Positions 11,398-23,731 of a stretch of 64,000 nt of DNA are shown here, piece after piece. The notes below the pieces were generated by a model. The model did not search any database. It saw nothing but the letters and a program-made list of their open reading frames with translations, and was not told where the DNA came from. Where the stretch lies: the NCBI GenBank assembly GCA_963772365.1, contig CAVYXA010000003.1, positions 384,001 to 448,000 on the forward strand, written 5' to 3'. A program made the translations under genes and the position numbers. This DNA comes from an uncultured Verrucomicrobiae bacterium (GTDB lineage Bacteria > Verrucomicrobiota > Verrucomicrobiia > Chthoniobacterales > UBA10450). Within the stretch, counting starts at the first letter, position 1. Every line of letters starts with the position of its first letter.

Positions 11398-12351
11398 ATG
11401 ACCGCGCCGAACAAATTCCGGATCATTGTCGCGTTTGCGGCGGTTTACATTATTTGGGGTTCGACTTACCTCGGAATTTTCTACGCCATCCAATCAATCC
11501 CGCCTTTTCTCATGGCTGGCACCCGATTCGTTCTCGCGGGTCTGATGATGTATGGCCTCGCGCGACTGAGAGGCGCGACTAAACCGACGCCGGTAATGTG
11601 GTTGAACTCGTTCATCATCGGCGGCTGTTTGCTCCTCGGCGGAAATGGCGGGGTTACTCTCGCCGAGAAATGGGTGCCGACTGGCCTTGCGGCTTTGCTC
11701 GTGGCGACCGTTCCAATTTACATCGCCTTTCTCGGCTGGATGACCGGAACCGCCCCGCGACCGACACCTGTCGTCTGGCTCGGATTGCTGGGCGGTTTTA
11801 TTGGTGTCGGTGTTCTTGTCGGACCGGCATTTGCCGCTCCCTCCACTGGCAATCACGTCGCCTTCGGAATGTCGATCCTGCTGATCGGCTCGTTTCTCTG
11901 GTCGATCGGCTCGCTCTATTCCCGCCGGGCCAGGACTGCGCGGACTTTATTTGCCGCTGCGGGCCAGCAAATGATTTGTGGCGGAGCCCTGCTTTTTCTC
12001 GTCGGCCTTTTGGTTGGCGAACAACGCGGCATTAATTTCAATCGCATCACGATGTCGTCGATCATCGCCTTTACTTATCTTGTTCTGATCGGCGCGATAG
12101 TCGGTTACACCGCGTATTTCTATCTGTTGCGTCATTGCGATCCGTCCAAGGTTGCGACCTACGCCTACGTCAATCCGATTGTCGCTCTGATTCTCGGGAC
12201 CTGCTTTGCCCATGAAAAATTGAGCGCGCGAACGTTGATCGGTGCGGCATTGATTATTGGGTCGGTCGCGGTTGTAATCATGGCCGAACAGATGAAAACC
12301 AAAGGTGTCCCGCCGATCGCCACCGCCGTGGAACCGGCCTGTCCCCGATGA
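11398..12351 (+). CDS. EamA/DMT family transporter (YedA-like)
   Basis: VYIIWGSTYL, PPFLMAGTRF and YAYVNPIVA motifs. Confidence 0.9.
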   Translation: MTAPNKFRIIVAFAAVYIIWGSTYLGIFYAIQSIPPFLMAGTRFVLAGLMMYGLARLRGATKPTPVMWLNSFIIGGCLLLGGNGGVTLAEKWVPTGLAALLVATVPIYIAFLGWMTGTAPRPTPVVWLGLLGGFIGVGVLVGPAFAAPSTGNHVAFGMSILLIGSFLWSIGSLYSRRARTARTLFAAAGQQMICGGALLFLVGLLVGEQRGINFNRITMSSIIAFTYLVLIGAIVGYTAYFYLLRHCDPSKVATYAYVNPIVALILGTCFAHEKLSARTLIGAALIIGSVAVVIMAEQMKTKGVPPIATAVEPACPR

Positions 12352-13514
12352 AGAACGACCAGCCAGATCGCAAAGAGACAATCGACGTCGTTCGGCGCAA
12401 TTGGCAGGCCGAAGTGGAAACCGCTCAGTCGTATCGCGACCTGGCCGAGCGCGAGCGAGACGAAAAGCGCAAAGGCATTCTGATCCGAATGGCCGAGGCG
12501 GAAGAACGTCACGCCCAACGATGGGAAAAGAAATTGCGCGACATGGGCGCCGAACCGCCGCAGCTCAAGAACACGTTGGGTCGCAGATTGAATCGTTGGT
12601 GGAACAAGATCGCCGGCGCCGACATCGCCATCCGCCGGATGGAAGCCGCGGAGGAAAAACACGAAGCCGCGTTTCGCGATCAACGCGATCGCGCGTTGGC
12701 CAATGAAGAAGACGTCAAAGATTTCCTCCGGCAAAGCGCGCTCGAAGAAAAAGCGCATGCTCGTGCATTAAACGCCATGACAGGACCTCCGAGTCCCCGC
12801 ACGGCTCTCGACGCGATTTTGAAACGCGAACGCTGGCATGGCCGCGGCGGCAGTTGGGTGGCCGATGCGATCTATGGCGCAAACGATGGGCTCGGCGCCG
12901 TCTTTGGTATTGTTTCGGGCGTCGCCGGCGCGACGAACAACCAGCAGCATTTTATTTTGATCTCGGGTCTCGCCGGAATGTTAGCATCGACATTGTCGAT
13001 GGGCGCCGGCGCGTATCTGGCCGCCAAAAGTGAAGCCGAAGTTTACGAAGCGGAAATTTCCCGGGAGCGCGCCGAGGTCGAAGAAAACCCAGAGGAAGAA
13101 ATCGAAGAGATGTCGCTCTTTTATCAGCTTCAGGGATTCAGTCCCGAAGAATCGCAAAAAATGGCCGAACGTCTTGCCGAACAACCCGAGCAATTCGTTC
13201 AAGCCATGGCTCAAAGCGAGCTCGGACTTTCCGAGCACCGTTTCCCGAACTATTGGACCGCAGCATTCTCGGCCGCGATTTCCACCGCGATCGGTGCGTT
13301 CGTTCCCATTATTCCATTCTTTTTCTCCGGCGGCCTCGACGCCGTTCTCGAGTCATTTGGCATCAGCCTCATCGCGCACTTCGCCGTAGGCGCATTAAAA
13401 TCGCTAATCACGATCCGCTCGTGGTGGGCCTCCGGCTTGGAAATGACCTGGATCGGCGTCATCGTCGCCGTCGTCACCTACGGCCTAGGATTGCTATTCG
13501 GTTCGTTAGGGTAG
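12348..13514 (+). CDS. Rubrerythrin-like domain fused to VIT1/CCC1 iron/manganese transporter
   Basis: N-terminal ExxH motifs (EERHA, EEKHE, EKAHA); DAIYGANDGL and SMGAGAYLA VIT1 motifs. Confidence 0.85.
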   Translation: MKNDQPDRKETIDVVRRNWQAEVETAQSYRDLAERERDEKRKGILIRMAEAEERHAQRWEKKLRDMGAEPPQLKNTLGRRLNRWWNKIAGADIAIRRMEAAEEKHEAAFRDQRDRALANEEDVKDFLRQSALEEKAHARALNAMTGPPSPRTALDAILKRERWHGRGGSWVADAIYGANDGLGAVFGIVSGVAGATNNQQHFILISGLAGMLASTLSMGAGAYLAAKSEAEVYEAEISRERAEVEENPEEEIEEMSLFYQLQGFSPEESQKMAERLAEQPEQFVQAMAQSELGLSEHRFPNYWTAAFSAAISTAIGAFVPIIPFFFSGGLDAVLESFGISLIAHFAVGALKSLITIRSWWASGLEMTWIGVIVAVVTYGLGLLFGSLG

Positions 13515-13562
13515 CGCACGCGCCCTCGCGTGCTGGTTTTGGCGGCTCGTCGAAACGAACTT
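13511..13562 (+). repeat. GTAG-type REP-like element at the left island boundary
   Basis: GTAGCGCACGCGCCCTCGCGTGC hairpin plus a second weak hairpin, overlapping the upstream stop codon. Confidence 0.55.
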
Positions 13563-13668
13563 AGGAGAGAAAGAATACGGGTCAAGAGTAGGAAGAGTAG
13601 GGTCAGGCTAGGCTTGCCCTGATTTGACGGACGGTGGGCTTAGGGTCAAAACCCGAAGGAGAGTCCAC

Positions 13669-14019
13669 ATGAAGACGCAGTTAAGTAAACCGGTTCGCAA
13701 CCGGGCAAACTACACCGAAGAGTATAAGCAGCAGGCGCTGGAGCTTTGGCGCGCCAGTGGTCGCAGTGCGGCCAAAGTGGCGGCCGAGCTGGGGATTCGT
13801 CCTCCGTTGCTTTATCGCTGGGCACGCTTGGAGCGCTTGCCTCAGAGCGGCCCGAGCGCAGCAGCCAAGCCAAGGCGCAGCATGGAAGAACTGGAGCGGG
13901 AGAACCAATTCTTACGGGCCGAAAACGCCAGGCTTCTTGAGCAGAGGGACATTTTAAAAAAGTCTCTGGGCATCCTCTCCGAAGCGCCGCCGAGCGCTAC
14001 GTCCAAGTCGAAGGTATGA
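13669..14019 (+). CDS. IS3 OrfA (HTH)
   Basis: YTEEYKQQA...VAAELGI...LYRW, ending in ILKKS; A6G slippery site at 13956-13962 leads into an open -1 frame joining OrfB. Confidence 0.92.
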   Translation: MKTQLSKPVRNRANYTEEYKQQALELWRASGRSAAKVAAELGIRPPLLYRWARLERLPQSGPSAAAKPRRSMEELERENQFLRAENARLLEQRDILKKSLGILSEAPPSATSKSKV

Positions 14020-14864
14020 GTGGGCAATATAAGATCGCCCGCTTGTGCGAAGCTTTGCTCGTTTCGCGCAGCGGCTTCTATGATTGGAAGCAGCGGCACC
14101 ATCATCCAGGAGCGCGCCAGTTAGATAACGCTCGCCTGGTCGAGCAGATCCGGCAGGAGTTTGTCCGCAGTCGCCACACCTACGGCAGTCCACGGCTAGC
14201 GCATGCTCTGGGCTGTCCAGGAAGACGCAATCGCATTGCTCGGCTGATGCGCGCACAAAGACTTTTCGCTCGGCAGCGTTCCAAGTATCGGGTCAAAACC
14301 ACCGATAGCGCTCACGGTGGCCCCATCGCACCGCACCGTCTGCGCCATCTCAAGGTACAAGCGCGCGATCAGGTCTGGGCCACTGATGCCACTGGCATCT
14401 TGACCGCTGAAGGTTGGCTTTACCTGGTCGCAGTGCTGGACCTCTTTAGCCGGCGGGTGGTGGGTTGGGCCATGAGCCCCATCCTGGATGCGCCACTGGC
14501 CATCAGCGCTCTGCGCATGGCCTTAAATCAACGTCGTCCCGCCCGCTCCCTCATCCTTCACTCCGATCGCGGCAGCCAGTTTGCCAGCGCCGCTTACCGG
14601 CAGGTCCTCTCGCAGCACCAACTCATTGCTTCCATGAGTCGCGCCGATAACTGCTACGACAATGCTTTCATCGAATCCTTCTGGAGCAGCCTCAAATACG
14701 AACTGGTCTACGACCAGCGCTTCGCTACTCGCGCACAGGCTCGCACCGCCGTCTTCGGCTACATTGAAACCTTCTACAACCGCATCAGACTGCACTCCAG
14801 CCTTGCCTACACCAGTCCGATTAATTTCGAAATCAAAAACAAAACTAACAAAAATAGACTATAG
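14016..14864 (+). CDS. IS3 OrfB DDE transposase
   Basis: YGSPR, WATD, LDLFSRRVVGW, HSDRGSQF, DNAFIESF and YNRIRLHSSL motifs. Confidence 0.95.
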   Translation: MSGQYKIARLCEALLVSRSGFYDWKQRHHHPGARQLDNARLVEQIRQEFVRSRHTYGSPRLAHALGCPGRRNRIARLMRAQRLFARQRSKYRVKTTDSAHGGPIAPHRLRHLKVQARDQVWATDATGILTAEGWLYLVAVLDLFSRRVVGWAMSPILDAPLAISALRMALNQRRPARSLILHSDRGSQFASAAYRQVLSQHQLIASMSRADNCYDNAFIESFWSSLKYELVYDQRFATRAQARTAVFGYIETFYNRIRLHSSLAYTSPINFEIKNKTNKNRL

Positions 14865-15198
14865 GAATTGATCCCTACCTAACTGTCCGAAAAATCAATG
14901 CAAGCCCAGGCATCAATTCTTGACTAAAGAGAGCCATTTATGCAGTGAAGCCGGGATATCCGATCGCTTCGATTTTGGCCGGTGCCGACGCAGCTGCTGG
15001 CTCACGTTCGCTGCGCTCTTCATTCCAAGTCGGTCCGCCAACCATTTTTGTGACACCACCGTCTGCTCCCAAATCACCTTTGCAATACAAACCTTGCGGG
15101 CACCCCCCGGATATTCGATGCAAATACTACGGGCCACAGCCGCTCTTTTACCCCACCAGTGCTACTTGTCAAGAATTGATGCCTGACCCCTATCTTCC

Positions 15199-16036
15199 CT
15201 ATCCGGCGTCGCCATTCTTCTTACCCCTGAAAATCTCTCGTGAATCTTTGTTCAGGTTCTTACCGAGTACCACGGTCACTTTATGTTTCTTGTCTTTGTC
15301 AATGGCGTCAAAAATTCTCTTCATTTGTAGATTCTGACTCTCATGTTTCCGTGCTTCCTCGAATTTTTTCTTTATGATTTCTGGGATCTCCCAATACAGT
15401 CCCATTGGATCAGCCTTGTCCCACGGATCATTCCAGCAGTAGCGATAGAAATTGTAATCGCCGGCCTCGAACATCTTCGGGTCTTCAGACATGAAACGTC
15501 CGAGGACGGGGTGATATGCACGCGCTCTATATTCATAAAACCCGAATTGTGAATTGTACTCACGCCCGGTGAAGAGAAAGCGGTTGCCAATTTGACTTGC
15601 TCCGGCGGCGATCAGATTTCCGTTGGCATCGAAAAAGGATGGCGCGCCGAAGGCGTCGTAGCGGTACGATTCCAGCACCTGCGCTCTTCCGTTCACGACG
15701 TTTCCGGTGACGACGGCGATGTTCCCGTTGCGATCGGGGAGCGGGTATTGACCGCCGCCAATCGCGCGGGCGATCACTTCGTCGATCCCATTTCCATAGA
15801 CCATCGTGCTTTTGATCGTCGAGCCGTTCCCTTCCCACTCCACCGTCCAATGTTCGCCGTCGAACAGGTAATAATTTTTCGTCGGGCTGTTTGTCCCGAC
15901 CGTGGTCTTGTGCTCCACGCACCGGCCCAGTGCATCGTAGAACAGCTCGTACTTGGTGGTCACATTGTTGACCAAAGCCGTGGCTGAGGAAAGCCAGGTG
16001 TCGCCGTAATATTTATAGAGCACACCCTTGTAGGTC
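15199..16036 (-). pseudogene. Orphan Rhs core fragment with apparently truncated toxin tip
   Basis: YDALGR, YRYDAFG, FTGREY, YEYRARAYHP, GRFMSEDP and DPWDKADPMGL; begins 14 bp from a TIR tip and stops in the tail of another TIR. Confidence 0.85.
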
Positions 16037-16050
16037 GGCAAATTCTATAA

Positions 16051-16411
16051 GGGGTCAGGCATCAATTCTTGACAGAAGCGGTCCATCTTCGCCTTCTGAT
16101 AATATAGGGGTCCGTTTTGCAACCACTGCATCCCGGCCACCAGATTGGCTTCCGGCGTCTCGATGAACAAATGATAATGATTGCTCATCAATACCCAGGC
16201 GTGCACGCGCCAGCCGGTGATCATGCATGTCTCGCCCAGTGTCTTCAAAAACAATTGCCGATCCGCATCGGTGCGGAAAATCGCTTCCCGCCGATTCCCC
16301 CCGCGCCATCACATGATAAAACGCGCCAGGATATTCAATGCGTATGCTGCGAGCCACCGCCGCGATTGAAAGCGGCCAACTCCACTTTGTCAAGAATTGA
16401 TGCCTGACCCC
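16051..16411 (-). mobile_element. TIR element B: 5' half of a RAYT-like transposase between 23-bp TIRs (361 bp)
   Basis: TIRs 16051-16073 and 16389-16411; translation ARSIRIEYPGAFYHVMARG / RREAIF...HAWVLMSNHYHL...WLQN (HUH motif present, catalytic Tyr region absent). Confidence 0.85.
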
Positions 16412-16528
16412 TATTCTTATTCCCCTTTCTGCTGACGCAAGATTTAGCCGAGTGTCAATAGTAAGCGCTAGGCTTGCCCTGATTTGACGGACGGTGGGCT
16501 TAGGGTCAAAACCCGAAGGAGAGTCCAC

Positions 16529-16879
16529 ATGAAGACGCAGTTAAGTAAACCGGTTCGCAACCGGGCAAACTACACCGAAGAGTATAAGCAGCAGGCGCTG
16601 GAGCTTTGGCGCGCCAGTGGTCGCAGTGCGGCCAAAGTGGCGGCCGAGCTGGGGATTCGTCCTCCGTTGCTTTATCGCTGGGCACGCTTGGAGCGCTTGC
16701 CTCAGAGCGGCCCGAGCGCAGCAGCCAAGCCAAGGCGCAGCATGGAAGAACTGGAGCGGGAGAACCAATTCTTACGGGCCGAAAACGCCAGGCTTCTTGA
16801 GCAGAGGGACATTTTAAAAAAGTCTCTGGGCATCCTCTCCGAAGCGCCGCCGAGCGCTACGTCCAAGTCGAAGGTATGA
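16529..16879 (+). CDS. IS3 OrfA
   Basis: Translation identical to 13669-14019. Confidence 0.92.
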   Translation: MKTQLSKPVRNRANYTEEYKQQALELWRASGRSAAKVAAELGIRPPLLYRWARLERLPQSGPSAAAKPRRSMEELERENQFLRAENARLLEQRDILKKSLGILSEAPPSATSKSKV

Positions 16880-17724
16880 GTGGGCAATATAAGATCGCCC
16901 GCTTGTGCGAAGCTTTGCTCGTTTCGCGCAGCGGCTTCTATGATTGGAAGCAGCGGCACCATCATCCAGGAGCGCGCCAGTTAGATAACGCTCGCCTGGT
17001 CGAGCAGATCCGGCAGGAGTTTGTCCGCAGTCGCCACACCTACGGCAGTCCACGGCTAGCGCATGCTCTGGGCTGTCCAGGAAGACGCAATCGCATTGCT
17101 CGGCTGATGCGCGCACAAAGACTTTTCGCTCGGCAGCGTTCCAAGTATCGGGTCAAAACCACCGATAGCGCTCACGGTGGCCCCATCGCACCGCACCGTC
17201 TGCGCCATCTCAAGGTACAAGCGCGCGATCAGGTCTGGGCCACTGATGCCACTGGCATCTTGACCGCTGAAGGTTGGCTTTACCTGGTCGCAGTGCTGGA
17301 CCTCTTTAGCCGGCGGGTGGTGGGTTGGGCCATGAGCCCCATCCTGGATGCGCCACTGGCCATCAGCGCTCTGCGCATGGCCTTAAATCAACGTCGTCCC
17401 GCCCGCTCCCTCATCCTTCACTCCGATCGCGGCAGCCAGTTTGCCAGCGCCGCTTACCGGCAGGTCCTCTCGCAGCACCAACTCATTGCTTCCATGAGTC
17501 GCGCCGATAACTGCTACGACAATGCTTTCATCGAATCCTTCTGGAGCAGCCTCAAATACGAACTGGTCTACGACCAGCGCTTCGCTACTCGCGCACAGGC
17601 TCGCACCGCCGTCTTCGGCTACATTGAAACCTTCTACAACCGCATCAGACTGCACTCCAGCCTTGCCTACACCAGTCCGATTAATTTCGAAATCAAAAAC
17701 AAAACTAACAAAAATAGACTATAG
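16876..17724 (+). CDS. IS3 OrfB DDE transposase
   Basis: Translation identical to 14016-14864. Confidence 0.95.
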   Translation: MSGQYKIARLCEALLVSRSGFYDWKQRHHHPGARQLDNARLVEQIRQEFVRSRHTYGSPRLAHALGCPGRRNRIARLMRAQRLFARQRSKYRVKTTDSAHGGPIAPHRLRHLKVQARDQVWATDATGILTAEGWLYLVAVLDLFSRRVVGWAMSPILDAPLAISALRMALNQRRPARSLILHSDRGSQFASAAYRQVLSQHQLIASMSRADNCYDNAFIESFWSSLKYELVYDQRFATRAQARTAVFGYIETFYNRIRLHSSLAYTSPINFEIKNKTNKNRL

Positions 17725-17832
17725 GAATTGATCCCTACCTAACTGTCCGAAAAATCAATGCAAGCCCACGCTGACCCCTTTCTACCTTCTTTACCCTACC
17801 TATCTTCCTATCTTCTACCCTGACTGTCGCAT

Positions 17833-18567
17833 TTACCGTTGGCGCTCCGTTTGTTTCTGAATCTCATGCCATCGGTTTTTCAAAAGGATTGCGTTCTCTG
17901 GTGTCACCAAGGAAACTTTCCCGTCAACGATTTGAAAATAAAAGGTTCCGAGCCGGGTGTCGAAGTTGTTCGGCGTACGATGCTGCGGTATCCCGGCAGC
18001 AGAAAGCAGTTTTTCTGAATGGTCGAATACCTTTACCGTCCCATCTTCTAATTCCTCCACTTTCGATTTGTCAATTCCGTGAATCCCGAGGTCAAACTCC
18101 TCGGCAAGGCCGCCTCGCCGATCATATAGTTTGATCTGCACTGGAAACGAGCTTTCGTTCGCGAAAAGTGCTAGAATCTCCGGTTCGTTTACTGGCGGCG
18201 TACCAAGCATCTCAACGCGTTCGAGATCGATGATACAGCCATAATAGTCTGTCGGCCGTTGCCTGGCGTAAGCTATTCCGACAACTTTAACCCAATGGTT
18301 ATTAAGATGCAGATAACGTGGCCCGGCGACGCGTGGAGAAATTAGAATCTCACGCGCAAAGCCGGCTTTGGTATCAGCTCGTGGAGGTTGGTACAGCACG
18401 AAATGCGGACCGTCCACCGCCGCCACGCCGATTACCGCAACTCGTTTCCCGCTGTACTTTCTTGGGTTGGCTACTAATTGGTCAAAATCAATAGCAAATG
18501 AGATCCCTGGCACCATCAAGACGGCGAGGAGGAAGATGATTGACTTAAAACGTGCGACCTTACTCAT
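17833..18567 (-). CDS. Secreted hypothetical protein, candidate immunity protein
   Basis: Signal peptide; start overlaps the stop of the upstream toxin-tip ORF by 8 bp; AT-richer than flanking genes. Confidence 0.6.
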   Translation of the reverse strand: MSKVARFKSIIFLLAVLMVPGISFAIDFDQLVANPRKYSGKRVAVIGVAAVDGPHFVLYQPPRADTKAGFAREILISPRVAGPRYLHLNNHWVKVVGIAYARQRPTDYYGCIIDLERVEMLGTPPVNEPEILALFANESSFPVQIKLYDRRGGLAEEFDLGIHGIDKSKVEELEDGTVKVFDHSEKLLSAAGIPQHRTPNNFDTRLGTFYFQIVDGKVSLVTPENAILLKNRWHEIQKQTERQR

Positions 18568-19174
18568 GGGGAAAATACAAGAATTTAACTACGTTTGCGG
18601 GCGGCACAGCCCCGATTGACGGAGGGTTTGCAAGCACGGCCTTAATCCCGTAGGCACGAAAATTGTCCACATCAGCTCTCTCGAAGCCATTCTGATGATA
18701 AGCATAAGCGTAATAGATTCCTATTGGCCTGTACCCTGGAGGTAGGTCAGCGTGACGCGGCTCGTAATAACTGCGGTTTTTTATTTGATTCGGATTATGC
18801 GTGTTATCACTGACGTTCCCTACATCACCTTCATGCACGGGCCCACGGGTATAAATTCCAGGGTGCTCGCTGCTCTCCCCCAAATATCCATAGCGCTCGT
18901 GATGTTGTGGATCACGGACAGCCTGAGGCGACGCTTCACTCCCACCATCTTTTCCAGCACCTTGCCACGACTTGAACGTCTTCGCGTTTTTCCCCTTTGG
19001 GTCGCCGTTCTCTGCGCGCGTATTTCCATAGGCTAGTCCTCCACCCTGCAGCGCATGCGCTGCCGCCATAGCGTCATGCAGCTTGTCCATCTCATATCCA
19101 GATGACGAACTGCGCCGGAAAGGATTCAACTCTCCAGGTTGCTGCTGAGAGCTCTCAACCAAATAGGAGGAATA
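18560..19174 (-). pseudogene. Orphan Rhs toxin-tip-like coding segment (JAB/DUF4329-like pattern), in frame with element C
   Basis: ERYGYL...PGIYTRGP...LPPGYRPIGIYYAY...FERAD; located in the Rhs array directly ahead of an immunity-like gene. Confidence 0.5.
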
Positions 19175-19521
19175 GGGGTCAGGCATCAATTCTTGACTGA
19201 AGAGAGCGATTTGCGCAATGAAGGTGGGATATCGATCGCTTCGATTTGCCACCAGGTTTGCTTCCGGCGTCTCGATAAATAGATGATGATGATTACTCAT
19301 CAATACCCAGGCGTGAACGCGCCAGCCGGTCATGGCGCACGCTTTCCCTAGCGTCCTGAGAAACAGTTGCCGGTCCACCTCGCTCCGGAAAATCGCTTCC
19401 CGCCGATTCCCACGCGCCATGAGGTGATAGAAGGCGCTGGGATATTCGATGCAAATACTACGGGCCACAGCCGCTCTTTTACCCCACCAGTGCTACTTGT
19501 CAAGAATTGATGCCTGACCCC
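19175..19521 (-). mobile_element. TIR element C: internally deleted RAYT-like transposase between 23-bp TIRs (347 bp)
   Basis: TIRs 19175-19197 and 19499-19521; MARSICIEYPSAFYHLMARGNRREAIF...MSNHHHLFIETPEANLVA joined to a 3' end homologous to that of element A. Confidence 0.85.
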
Positions 19522-19550
19522 TATCTTTATCTTCCCCTATCTTTATCTTC

Positions 19551-20102
19551 CTATCTCGGGTCATTCGTCTTCCTTGTAGTCCGCCCCATCGAGAACCTTC
19601 GCGCCGCCATCGGTGCCCCAGGTGTACCCGGCCCTTCCGTCAATGTTGATGTAAACGGTTGGGGCTTCGGATGCTTAGCGGGTGGTTTCGGCTGATACGG
19701 CGACGTGTCCTCCAATCCCATGGGATCCGTTCGATCCCAGGGATCATTCCAGCAGTAGCGGAAGAAATTGTAATCGCCGGCCTCGAACATCTTCGGGTCT
19801 TCGCTCATGAAACGGCCGAGCACCGGGTGATAAGCGCGCGCGCGATATTCGTAGAACCCGAATTGTGAATTGTGTACTTCTTCCGGTGAACAGGAATCTA
19901 TTTCCGATCTGACTTAATCCGCATGGACTCGATCCGCACATGATCAGATTCCCGCCGGCATCAAAGAACAATGGCAAGCCGGACTCGTCATACCGGTACG
20001 GGTCCAGTACCCGTGCTCTTCCGTTGACGATGTTGCCAGTCACCACGGCAGTGTTCCTGTTGCGATCGGGCAGGAAATATTGGCCGCGCGTCTCCGCGTT
20101 CG
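19551..20102 (-). pseudogene. Orphan Rhs core fragment (frameshifted) with short tip ending at element C
   Basis: GQYFLPDRN, YRYDESG, NRFLFTGR, GRFMSEDP and DPWDRTDPMGL; starts directly after the immunity-gene stop codon. Confidence 0.8.
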
Positions 20103-20585
20103 CTATTTTCCCTTCCTGCTGTAAATAGCTTGCTGAGCAATCTCGTCTAATCGAGGCTCTCGTCGAAATCGCTTTCCGTTAAAGATCAGTACTGGGCCTA
20201 CAGATACTCCAACCGTTGCGATCTTCGTTGGACCTGGCAGACTCGAGCCCACTGGGAGAACAGTTCCCTCCGTTAAATGATACCTCACCAAAAGTTCAGA
20301 GTTATGAAATGTCCATTCTCCGTTATAAACGTTACGGGGATCCCCGTTGCTGATGCGCATTCGATTTGACTGTAAAAGAACGTAACAATCAATGAAACCG
20401 AACCGGGCATTGGAGGCAAAGTAAAGAATCTCTCCTTCTCCCGACTGCAGACCTGGATTCACATCTGCGGGCGCTTTAATCCAACTTATCCCCTCCTCCA
20501 ACCAAGCGCCATCGGGCGCAAATGTCTCGGAAGCTGCCAAACGCGCTAGGGCAATAATCAACAAAAATGATAAAAGTCGCTTCAT
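20103..20585 (-). CDS. Periplasmic candidate immunity protein
   Basis: Signal peptide MKRLLSFLLIIALARLAA; ATGA overlap with the toxin stop. Confidence 0.7.
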   Translation of the reverse strand: MKRLLSFLLIIALARLAASETFAPDGAWLEEGISWIKAPADVNPGLQSGEGEILYFASNARFGFIDCYVLLQSNRMRISNGDPRNVYNGEWTFHNSELLVRYHLTEGTVLPVGSSLPGPTKIATVGVSVGPVLIFNGKRFRREPRLDEIAQQAIYSRKGK

Positions 20586-22301
20586 GGCTCGACCACAGGA
20601 ATGTTGACGGCAACGCCGATTTTAGTGTCAGGCATGTTCCACATATAATTGATCATTCTCGTATCCACGCCGTAGCAGAGACAACCATGTGTCCAACCAT
20701 GACCATTAGTTTGTCCATGGAAGTAATCGCCCGCGTCATCCTCATTATTACCAGGGCCAGGATTTAATCGCGCACGTAGTGGGCCGTACGCTCCCACGAT
20801 ATCCATCGGCACACCGCGATACTCAAAGTTGTGCATTCGCTGGATACCATAGTGCTGCGGCGGATTACCAAGCTCCGATTTTGGATTGATCGTATTCGGT
20901 CCTTTAGCGTCACGATCGTCTGTTCTTATTACATAATTTCCATCTCGAATGGACGGTTGGCCATTTCCCCCTGAGAAGCCGGTTCCTTGCAGGACTCTTC
21001 CATTTTGGTCAAAGAATGTGAGCTTATAGTTTGTCGCTCCGGTCTGTGAATTGGTGCCCGTTGCCTTGGCGCGCAATAGCGCCGTTATTTCGCTGCGCTC
21101 GGTATGCAATCCATTCACATCATGAACGACAGTTGAATTACCCTTATGCCACTCCCATTGCTTATTTATATAGAACCAATTGAGGCCCCTCGGATCGCTG
21201 CGATCCCATGGATCATTGCCGCAGTATCGATAAAAATTGTAATCGCCGGCCTCGAACATCTTCGGGTCTTCGCTCATGAATCGGCCTATGACCGGGTGAT
21301 ACGCTCGCGCTCTGTACTCGTAAAACCCAAATTGTGAATTGTACTCTCGTCCGGTGAACAGAAACCGATTCCCGATGAGGCTCGCGCCTGTGCCGATCGG
21401 GTGACCGCCGGCGTCGAAGAATGACGGCAAGCCGAATGCGTCATAGCGATACGACTCCAGCACCGCCGCGGTAATGTCGGTGACTACCGCGATATTGCCA
21501 TTGCGATCCGGCATGAAGTACTGCCCGCCGCCAATCGCGCGGGCGATCACTTCATCGATCCCGTGCCATAGACCATCGTGCTTTTGATCATCGAGCCGTG
21601 ATCGTGCTTTTCAGGGTCGAGCCGTTGGTCTCGTATTCTACCGTCCAATGTTCGCCATCGAACAGGTAATAATTTTTCGTGGGATTGTTTGTCCCGACCG
21701 TGGTCTTGTGCTCCACGCATCGGCCCAGTGCATCGTAGAACAGCTCGTACTTGGTGGAGACATTGTTGACCAAAGCCGTGGCTGAAGAAAGCCAGGTGTC
21801 GCCTTAATATTTGTAGAGCACGCCCTTGTAGGTCGAGATCTCGTGGACGCTTCCGTTGGCCACCGTGTCTGTCCCGGCAGCGGTGTATTGGTTGAGCGCG
21901 TTCGGGGTGTAATTTTTGGTCACGCCCTGATCAATCACACTGGTGCGATTACCCGCGGCATCCAGATTGTAGGTGAACCCCCGTGTGGTCCAGCCGTAGG
22001 CGGCGGTGTGCAATTGGCCATCCGCGTAATAGCTGTATGGATCATTGGTGGTGTTGCCCTGCGTGTGGGCGACGCCGGTGAGCCGGTTCATATTGTCCAG
22101 CGTAAAATGCTCATGCGAGAACCGGACCGATGCCGAGAGATAAATGTCCAGATCGCTCATCCGATCGGCGGTGTCGTAAGTGTAATTGACAAACGAGCCG
22201 TTCTTGTAATTCATCCGCTTCTTCACGTTTGAGGCCCGATCGTAGCTGTATTTGTAATTGATTGTGCCGGTCCGACCCATTCCATCCAGGCTCGAGATCA
22301 C
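20582..22301 (-). pseudogene. Rhs (YD-repeat) protein remnant with intact C-terminal toxin domain (L,D-transpeptidase/Tlde1-like)
   Basis: Three ORF pieces (21804-22301, 21588-21773, 20582-21550) with YD repeats and Rhs core ending DPWDRSDPRGL; nonsense codon at 21804-21806 and 26-bp duplication at 21575-21626; tip has YFHG-x7-THGC. Confidence 0.85.
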
Positions 22302-22387
22302 GTCGTAACCGGTGCTCGGGGAGCGGGCGCGGTAGACACCCGCTCAATTGGGTGCGCTATTCTGGAATTCGCCTATCCGAACGGACA

Positions 22388-23731
22388 ATGAACAAACAGT
22401 ACCCTGGATCATTGCCCGCTACCAGGCTCGCCCGCCAGCTTGGACTTTTCGGCACCACGATGGCCGTGATGGGCGGAATCATTGGGGCGGGAATTTTCAT
22501 CAATCCCTATCTGGTTGCTCAACGTGTTCACACACCGCTGTTGATTCTGAGCGCATGGATTGTCGGCGGATTGATCGCGTTGGCGGGAGGATTCATTTAC
22601 GCGGAGCTTGCTGCGCGAATGCCGGTTGTCGGCGGGCAGTACGCCTATTTGCGTGAGGCGCTGCACCCGGCGGTCGCATTCATTTACGGATGGGTATTGC
22701 TCCTTGTGATCCAGACCGGCGGTGTGGCTGCGGTAGCGGTCACCTTTGCCAAATATTTTTTGAAACTAACCCACTGGCCCGTGACCGATTCCATCATCGC
22801 CGCAATCGCGCTTGGCTTACTCACCGCCATAAATTGCGCCGGTGTGCGTGCTGGCAGCCGGGTGCAATTGATCATGACTTTGACCGCGATCGGCGCAATT
22901 GCGGCTCTCGAAGGTTTCAGTTTTTGGTATGCGAATCCGCAAACCAGAAGTTTCGGCGGTCATAGACCGTCGCTACAGGTCGATGTCAATCTTATCCTCG
23001 CCTTCGGATCAGCCATGACCCCGGTCCTGTTCGCGTACGGCGGCTGGCAAACGTCGAGTTTCCTCGGTGGCGAAGTGCGCGATGCTCGAAAAACTTTGCC
23101 GCGCGCGCTGATTATCGGAGTCGTGGGCGTAATTATCGTCTATACCTCGGTGAATTTCGTTTACCTGCGCGCGCTCGGACCGACCGGTTTGGCAGAATCG
23201 ACGACGCCCGCTTCATCTGTCATGCGCGCGTTGCTTGGCCCGCGCGGCGGAGAATTCATCGCAGCGGGAATCGCTTTCTCTGCGTTTGGATTTCTCGCCC
23301 AATCAATGTTGACGGCTCCGCGCGTTTATTTCGCCATGGCCGATGACGGGGTCTTCTTCAAGAGCGTGAGTTGGGTTCATCCGCGCACGCATGTGCCCGT
23401 GATAGCGATCGCGTTACAAGGCGTATGGGCAATCGTGATCGCGCTCACCGGTACCTACGCGCAGGTGGTGAATTACGTTATCGCGATGGACTGCATCTTC
23501 TTCGGCCTAACAGCGACATGCCTGTTTGTATTTCGGTATCGCTCTGATCAGCTCGCCAACTTCCGCGTGCCCGGTCATCCCTGGACAACATTGTTGTTCA
23601 TCGCCGCCAACTGGCTCGTCGTTGTCAGCACATTCGCGCAGGATCCCAAGCGCTCGTTCATCGGGCTCGGCATCGCCATTGCCGGTTTACCCGTCTATTT
23701 CTTGTGGCAGGGCAGGACAAAAAGCTTTTAA
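22388..23731 (+). CDS. APC family amino acid permease
   Basis: GIIGAGIF, YAELAARMP, GGQYAYL, FAYGGW and PRVYFAMADDG motifs. Confidence 0.92.
   Translation: MNKQYPGSLPATRLARQLGLFGTTMAVMGGIIGAGIFINPYLVAQRVHTPLLILSAWIVGGLIALAGGFIYAELAARMPVVGGQYAYLREALHPAVAFIYGWVLLLVIQTGGVAAVAVTFAKYFLKLTHWPVTDSIIAAIALGLLTAINCAGVRAGSRVQLIMTLTAIGAIAALEGFSFWYANPQTRSFGGHRPSLQVDVNLILAFGSAMTPVLFAYGGWQTSSFLGGEVRDARKTLPRALIIGVVGVIIVYTSVNFVYLRALGPTGLAESTTPASSVMRALLGPRGGEFIAAGIAFSAFGFLAQSMLTAPRVYFAMADDGVFFKSVSWVHPRTHVPVIAIALQGVWAIVIALTGTYAQVVNYVIAMDCIFFGLTATCLFVFRYRSDQLANFRVPGHPWTTLLFIAANWLVVVSTFAQDPKRSFIGLGIAIAGLPVYFLWQGRTKSF

Follow-up and report, generated by a model that had tools for sequence, protein, structure and literature searches.

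In the 64,000-nucleotide stretch analysed here (the window; contig CAVYXA010000003.1, positions 384,001 to 448,000, of an uncultured Verrucomicrobiae bacterium), a string of Rhs toxin fragments is interspersed with shrunken transposons of the TIRYT class, each bounded by short terminal inverted repeats (TIRs). The locus raises the question of whether such transposons take part in moving toxin tips between Rhs genes. A preliminary description of the window proposed that they constitute a toxin-cassette shuffling system. We found that TIRYTs are enriched next to Rhs cores in several samples of genomes, that they lie almost always on the strand of the Rhs gene, and that breakpoints in Rhs genes coincide with TIR ends; to this extent the proposal stands. 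However, this is not a toxin-specific shuffling system, as most TIRYTs reside elsewhere and a piece of housekeeping DNA has also been moved.

Transposon remnants in the toxin array of the window

The repeat in question is 23 bp long, and was originally counted as six copies in three inverted pairs. Five of these are exact, at 15168-15190 (-), 16051-16073 (+), 16389-16411 (-), 19175-19197 (+) and 19499-19521 (-), with no match in 100 shuffles of the window, but the sixth (13599/13600) is non-contiguous, being interrupted by a 1300-bp IS3-family insertion sequence (IS), and has A as its first base. No further copy with up to 3 mismatches was detected in the whole 64 kb, in agreement with the preliminary description, which had nevertheless missed a seventh TIR of variant sequence at 16454-17778 (-). 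This is a 5'-type TIR of another TIRYT family with its own outer tail, and is interrupted by a second, identical IS3 copy (16469-17768).

The three pairs delimit miniatures A (13599-15190; 289 bp after subtraction of the IS), B (16051-16411; 361 bp) and C (19175-19521; 347 bp). In each of them a Y1 transposase gene has lost a different internal part, and all the remnants lie on the minus strand, as do the Rhs pieces, exactly as first described. Miniature A, with its 5' TIR at 15168-15190 and its IS3-split 3' TIR, keeps the first 10 and the C-terminal ~62 codons, and lacks the HUH motif. The HUH motif is kept in B, which has two TIRs and a frameshifted N-terminal region of ~82 codons, and in C, which has two TIRs and 74 N-terminal codons; the catalytic tyrosine is kept in none of the three.

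The Rhs pieces abut these elements closely. The core fragment extending from the YD end to the DPMGL motif, with its short tip (15199-16041, -), does border miniature B, though it starts 13 bp outside the 3' TIR of the latter (repeat D4 ends at 16037) and not 14 bp as initially reported, and its tip stops in the outer tail of A. Likewise, a set of broken core pieces with a short tip (19551-20087, -) ends beside the outer tail of C, such that both open reading frames (ORFs) described as terminating in TIR tails, at 15199 and 19551, have their stops within or beside these tails. The orphan tip said to begin at a TIR (18560-19174, -) does so, starting from the 3' TIR of C and being fused in frame to its transposase stub. 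The resulting ORF of 302 amino acids (aa; 18560-19468) reads from the stub through the 3' TIR into the tip, and is followed by an intact partner ORF. Miniature C could supply a start codon to this tip; a sigma-70 scan listed neither an inward promoter in the TIR (3' end TTGAC) nor a promoter for the stub-tip ORF. A longer homologue of the tip, sought as a test of whether C is a simple insertion, was not found.

The core fragments match TIGR03696 above the cut-off and end in the DPxGL motif, beyond which lie variable tips and small downstream ORFs, all on one strand. Among the two longer tips, one is complete and YkuD/Tlde1-like with a high score (20582-21550, -, together with its core fragment), and is a predicted cell-wall toxin of bacteria. 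The other is the above orphan tip, whose resemblance to JAB1/DUF4329 scored nearly as high and is treated as a lead only. Two intact ORFs are putative immunity proteins by position, one of 244 aa (17833-18567, -), which overlaps the stop of the JAB-like tip, and one of 160 aa (20103-20585, -); both have a hydrophobic N-terminus, and the 244-aa ORF has no weighty family match. The array is opened by broken YD-repeat and core fragments (21551-22320, -) with no TIR, and a full-length rhs gene heading it is absent. At its other edge, a terminator-like hairpin and the outer stuttered tail of miniature A (13515-13598) follow the VIT1 gene (12348-13514), which has an N-terminal rubrerythrin-like domain. 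In the VIT1-to-permease region, whose comparison was suggested in the preliminary description, the two genes are apart in all 4 relatives, such that no empty site is definable and gene order is broken at the array.

The intact parent and a second array

Genome-wide, there are 12 exact copies of the 23-mer, namely 5 in the window, 6 at a second locus on contig C1 and 1 solo remnant on contig C6, so that 11 of the 12 fall within two Rhs arrays. The C6 remnant (C6:117582-118205; L002) consists of a solo 5' TIR with 133 bp of a TIRYT start; next to it, the beginning of a DinG-like helicase gene is present as a short, diverged second copy.

The intact parent gene that the preliminary description called for, with HUH motif and catalytic tyrosine, is present in the second array, which is likewise made of Rhs fragments. 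It encodes 348 aa (C1:1727911-1728954) within an element (C1:1727858-1728968) whose TIRs are identical 23-mers, GGGGTCAG..., at C1:1727858 and 1728946, and fit the consensus GGGGWSAS. The protein matches PF01797 above the cut-off, and in its H60-x-H62 and Y121 residues the H62 and Y121 are invariant, and H60 nearly so, across 29 homologues. Its predicted structure (mean pLDDT 85) has the E. coli RAYT 4ER8 as its best structural match; the C-terminal domain is helical in this model, while a whole-protein search gave no Pfam helix-turn-helix match. Compared with shuffled sequence, five TIR ends show no stronger folding (z between 0.34 and -1.29), indicating no REP-type hairpin, and the NCBIfam scores lie below their cut-offs (RAYT 63 vs 80; IS200 21 vs 55). 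Membership of the RAYT/REPIN group was rejected on the lack of flanking palindromic REP hairpins and on this RAYT score. By its sequence features the parent fits the definition of a TIRYT given by Di Nocera et al. (2013), and probably belongs to subclass 2.1 of Quentin et al. (2018). A TIR-flanked class of this name had been mentioned in the preliminary description, and it is indeed set out in the main texts of these papers (PMC3733652, PMC6006769). The 5' parts of A, B and C match the intact gene at only 75-89%; they therefore derive from more than one paralogue. Judging by homologous proteins, the host is probably a soil Verrucomicrobium resembling the Chthoniobacterales.

The second array is ~5 kb long and lies between glpX and a crystallin-like gene, which are adjacent in 3 of 4 relatives; it is therefore a plain insertion, which led us to abandon the idea that both arrays arose as the ends of a single genome rearrangement. 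Its opening YD-core fragment is that of the window array (92% identical), and it contains a copy of miniature A (C1:1726125-1726413) that differs from A, without its IS, by 1 base. Furthermore, the 364 bp flanking A in the window, comprising its tail, the terminator and the 3' end of VIT1, recur at C1:1727484-1727847 between two TIR tips of the second array. The first ~165 bases of this copy are identical and the rest ~88% so. DNA outside a TIR tip has therefore moved with the elements, and the cargo need not be toxin DNA. The ends of miniature A and of a further miniature, D, recur in mixed pairings, which is indicative of recombination between copies.

Beyond the arrays, related TIR variants occur at non-Rhs accessory DNA of this genome. 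Those without a transposase, at C3:669824-672025 (L003), C5:293814-298789 (L004), C2:55882 (L007) and C1:1140420 (L006), flank accessory genes, including PEP-CTERM-like ORFs and a sulfatase-like gene, and at the C3 site two TIR tips face each other over ~2.1 kb of cargo. We also observed a dispersed repeat of at least 57 bases at the opening end of both arrays (window 22360-22403, overlapping the start of the permease gene; C1:1725203-1725259), and at four more sites (C1:1349768, C1:1114417, C1:1445956 and C2:53498).

The two IS3 copies in the window (both +) belong to a set of four identical ones, at 13609-14908 and 16469-17768 of the window, C5:11090-12389 and C2:15854-17153. These have an OrfA with a helix-turn-helix and an OrfB with a DDE motif, short inverted ends and a 3-bp target duplication. 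All four are inserted in TIRYT-type TIRs in a single register, with duplication of TIR positions 8-10 (GGC in miniature A). Matches to the rve domain adjoin TIRYTs in two other genomes as well (twice in G021, once in G026). The IS3 element of this genome thus targets TIRYT ends, in what looks like a parallel to IS1397 and ISKpn1, IS3-family elements described as targeting REP sequences (Tobes and Pareja 2006, PMC1525189). The likeness is that insertion occurs at one set position within repeats that a Y1 transposase recognises; the difference lies in the target, which here is the TIR of a TIRYT and not a hairpin.

Association of TIRYTs with Rhs cores

To quantify the association we counted a TIRYT locus as linked if it lay within 5 kb of an Rhs core. 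Among 60 genomes of relatives, the Rhs-bearing ones contained 43 TIRYT-like loci, of which 19 were linked (0.46 expected), spread over 11 of 18 genomes; these denominators include one locus from an unpublished genome (G008). All 19 linked TIRYTs were co-oriented with the Rhs gene and 17 lay downstream of it. As controls, weak matches to other Y1 enzymes (1/22) and rve-type ISs (1/38) were rarely near an Rhs core, and the single such IS lies inside a TIRYT-Rhs locus. Two further samples were drawn with cut-offs set in advance. The first spanned 90 genomes of the phylum, with the Rhs table made for the 29 TIRYT-bearing ones, and yielded 10 linked loci of 49 (at most 0.87 expected), distributed over 9 of 29 Rhs-bearing genomes; 9 of the 10 were co-oriented. 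The second comprised 80 genomes of the gammaproteobacterial order of Rheinheimera, an order picked because one member, itself excluded, showed the pairing; here 4 of 15 loci were linked (0.2 expected), 3 of them co-oriented. The enrichment next to Rhs cores postulated from the window is thus strong in all three genome samples. It recurred in a GTDB scan restricted to the best 80 of 537 matches from 2 of the 64 parts of the collection (5/79 loci, ~0.4 expected; 5/5 co-oriented), and among metagenomic loci with the exact 23-mer (5/51 short loci, 4 of them distinct, ~0.1 expected; all co-oriented). In one gammaproteobacterial genome (G134, L231-L234) we observed five near-identical TIRYTs, a sign of recent transposition; two of the five adjoin Rhs cores.

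Pooled without the metagenomes, 36 of 38 TIRYT-Rhs pairs are co-oriented. A general tendency of TIRYTs to follow the strand of any upstream gene was considered and rejected: of 58 loci in the orientation set, 17 without a Pfam match and 2 with an upstream Rhs gene were excluded, and in a hand count of the remaining 39 the neighbour was on the same strand in 19 and on the opposite strand in 20. The co-orientation bias is therefore specific to Rhs.

Rhs breakpoints also coincide with TIR tips above chance, as the preliminary description had anticipated. At TIRYT-Rhs loci, the 3' end of a truncated core falls on a 5' TIR tip in 7 of 10 cases, where 0.49 would be expected. Of 32 orphan 5' boundaries, 18 have a TIR end nearby, as against 7.25 expected for the loose window used; at least 2 of these look like chance. 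Junctions were examined base by base in six other genomes. Rhs fragments begin directly after a 3' TIR tail in G020, G025, G057 and L216, and directly after a 5' TIR with a short stub at two junctions of G019 and again in G025. Stuttered part-copies of the tip sequence, with an outer word of 6-14 bases, are present outside 20 of 61 5' TIRs, as against 3.4% of random sites. A look-up of sequencing runs for window positions 15000-22300, in which junction variants or circles might show, listed none.

A comparable arrangement was observed outside Rhs genes. In G081 (L240; C1:1990800-2001700) a non-Rhs protein of 1646 aa with a weak intimin-like stretch and its 531-aa partner precede a TIRYT, behind which stands an orphan copy of the C-terminus (74%) that begins at a 3' TIR and has a paralogue of the partner. 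The pair looks like an undescribed polymorphic toxin-immunity pair.

A proposed route for toxin cassettes, its rivals and known systems

Single-strand circles are part of the chemistry of Y1 transposases. The explanation we favour, at slightly better than even confidence, is that the TIRYT enzyme excises its element along with the upstream toxin tip and immunity gene, and spreads with them, the cores recombining afterwards. In such a scheme the HUH enzyme would nick one strand ~6-14 bases outside the TIR and stay bound to the TIR-bearing 5' end, and rejoining after a nick outside the TIR would leave the stuttered tails. If the upstream cut were made within an Rhs core rather than at the 5' end of the element itself, a circle closed at the 3' TIR would result, containing a core fragment, the tip, the immunity gene and the element. 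Homologous recombination between cores could then integrate this circle by a single crossover and displace the old tip behind the element, giving the predicted order of full Rhs gene, immunity gene, TIRYT, 3' TIR, orphan core fragment and old tip. Only co-oriented elements could carry a toxin cassette by this route, which would explain the strand bias, and later local cut-and-join events would delete element interiors and truncate cores. Under the same favoured explanation, and with the same slight lean, the TIRYT would be an opportunistic and non-essential helper of C-terminal displacement. Most TIRYTs reside elsewhere, the genomes richest in Rhs genes gave no TIRYT match, the Rhs-linked enzymes are polyphyletic and a housekeeping piece was moved; it is therefore not a dedicated system. 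A much broader version, that TIRYTs are a widespread and as yet unrecognised engine of polymorphic-toxin evolution, cutting out single-stranded DNA (ssDNA) circles that close at the 3' TIR and contain the element with a core fragment, a tip and an immunity gene, and riding the moved cassettes, is tentative and falls short of an even chance in our estimate.

Several observations weigh against the favoured explanation. With respect to sampling, the split between strong and weak Y1 matches among the relatives was drawn after seeing the matches, the TIR tip motif for the breakpoint counts was widened after junctions had been seen, and kin genomes are non-independent, so that the significance of the enrichment is overstated. 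Across the five samples in the order given above, 24/43, 39/49, 11/15, 74/79 and 46/51 of the TIRYT or TIR loci lie away from Rhs; in G001, the sister genome, just 2 of the 14 TIR matches are at an Rhs locus. Conversely, Rhs genes often do without TIRYTs: of 81 Rhs clusters in the relatives, 19 have a TIRYT-like match within 5 kb and 62 have none, three genomes whose Rhs cores number 46, 54 and 18 (among the matches listed, 150 of 406) have no TIRYT match at 1e-25, and three other Rhs loci of the present genome contain no TIR. At the level of junctions, 14 of 32 orphan starts have no nearby TIR end, and about half of those linked to a TIR follow a 5' TIR stub and not a 3' TIR tip. Such 5'-stub junctions are not predicted by the circle model, and extra later deletions, as in the miniatures, are therefore needed. 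The outer ends of the second array are Rhs fragments and another repeat without TIRs, and 3 of the 4 outer ends of the two arrays are non-TIR. In a quick tree of the enzymes, whose rows came from loci chosen partly for Rhs linkage, the Rhs-linked TIRYTs (24 of 130 rows) are polyphyletic, with 17 changes of which at least 15 are forced; a dedicated Rhs clade of TIRYT enzymes was rejected on this tree. Finally, the assembly, which is 90% complete, yielded no full-length Rhs of the window's family. Because of this the window array is probably a relic, most likely a decayed one that still holds intact putative immunity genes.

The best of the alternatives, which we regard as unlikely but deserving serious weight, treats the TIRYTs as targeted hitch-hikers. 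They would insert strand-preferentially, either just after a toxin-immunity pair or next to ends of their own, and only scar the locus by local deletions. The cassettes would travel by ordinary recombination of one Rhs core with another, in which TIRYT copies would serve at most as extra homology. This would account for the enrichment, breakpoints and stubs without any capture of flanking DNA, and it sits well with the TIRYT-free Rhs arrays, the non-TIR outer ends and the mixed ends of miniatures A and D; the repeated identical stub-core junctions of G019 could likewise be one event copied by recombination. However, it offers no account of 36 co-oriented pairs in 38 against 19:20 for other neighbours, and the junctions read by eye include no element flanked on both sides by a continuous Rhs gene, miniature C being a possible exception. 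The moved VIT1 flank, moreover, requires a joining step at a TIR.

A domesticated cassette recombinase, recruited specifically to shuffle toxin cassettes in trans between TIRs acting as integron-like sites, which is the strong version of the preliminary proposal, appears improbable. Its appeal comes from G061, whose only TIRYT and only Rhs core adjoin, and G062, whose two TIRYTs are both near Rhs (each genome was picked for the pairing), and from cassettes repeatedly starting at TIR ends in G019, G020 and G025. Against it stand the scatter of the linked enzymes over the tree, which weakens this view, the abundance of TIRYTs away from Rhs, the variable junction positions together with the orphan starts and outer array ends devoid of TIRs, the movement of a useless housekeeping fragment (the VIT1 3' end), and the decay of the elements in the manner of ordinary transposons. 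An integron-like site-specific system fails in particular for want of a single recombinase lineage and of a fixed site at every cassette edge. Very improbable, finally, is the notion of orphan Rhs arrays as neutral ground collecting any mobile element, for which one may cite the two IS3 copies and an IS5-like fragment within the two arrays and the ISs reported in orphan contact-dependent inhibition (CDI) arrays in the sections consulted of Poole et al. (2011), but against which stand the near-absence of control ISs beside Rhs (the one of 38 being inside a TIRYT-Rhs locus), the TIR targeting (4/4 copies) that explains the window's own IS3 insertions, and the orientation bias, where neutrality predicts random orientation.

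Both partners in this association are already known, and what is new here is the statistic of their enrichment. In searches that covered the main texts of mostly open-access papers, we found no literature link between TIRYT- or RAYT-type enzymes and Rhs arrays, though supplements such as those of Zhang et al. (2012) and Quentin et al. (2018) could contain such neighbourhoods; in the portions available, the sole paper found to mention both RAYTs and Rhs treats them separately, and those of Zhang 2012, Jackson 2009 and Poole 2011 do not contain the TIRYT-Rhs pairing. The class itself, the TIRtrons or TIRYTs of Di Nocera, De Gregorio and Rocco (2013; PMC3733652), equals TnpA-Y1 subclass 2.1 of Quentin et al. 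(2018; PMC6006769), and in both main texts is defined from sequence alone. The elements described here share with it a Y1/HUH gene whose product is extended at the C-terminus by a long helical region, TIRs fitting GGGGWSAS without a REP hairpin, and TIR repeats that occur both singly and in pairs at other places in the genome. They differ in their setting: the word "Rhs" is absent from the main texts of the two papers, the scope of this comparison, which likewise do not describe deleted miniatures in toxin arrays, flank capture or the mechanism.

In comparison to the IS200/IS605 TnpA and RAYT/REP enzymes (4ER8), the parent shares the fold, the HUH motif and a single catalytic tyrosine, from which single-strand cut-and-join chemistry is expected, but it is ~2x as long, its ends lack a hairpin and its NCBIfam scores are below the cut-offs. 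The IS91/ISCR elements provide a case of an HUH enzyme that mobilises DNA beside one end. Theirs is another enzyme family with asymmetric ori/ter ends, whereas the TIRs here are symmetric and the cargo would be the upstream toxin-immunity DNA; if the favoured explanation is correct, an HUH enzyme would be capturing flanking DNA from short non-hairpin ends. H-repeats (ISAs1 family), whose transposase is a DDE enzyme, are found repeatedly just downstream of E. coli rhs genes, and to our knowledge have no role at cassette breakpoints.

A close precedent is the C-terminal displacement of Rhs genes. According to the parts consulted of Jackson et al. (2009; PMC2935791), it proceeds via a proposed circular intermediate whose origin was left open, and the gain of an Rhs tip without loss of the old ones has since 2009 rested on that circle. 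Strings of core fragment, tip and immunity gene from one clade, core fragments of variable length, and integration of a circle by a single crossover are common to that model (also Zhang et al. 2012, PMC3482391) and to the route favoured here. In those sources, as far as they were available, the circle arises by homologous recombination between cores and no transposase is invoked, whereas many cassette edges here lie at transposon ends. The strand-specific pairing of TIRYTs with Rhs genes in Verrucomicrobiota and Gammaproteobacteria bears on this model and on the TIRYT class alike, and comes with a named enzyme and defined ends, and with predictions for the nick site and for the circle junction. 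If TIRYTs do act in this manner, ssDNA circles closed at the 3' TIR would supply the circular intermediate lacking in the displacement model, and would constitute an added route for the horizontal spread of antibacterial weapons and their immunity in soil and water bacteria.

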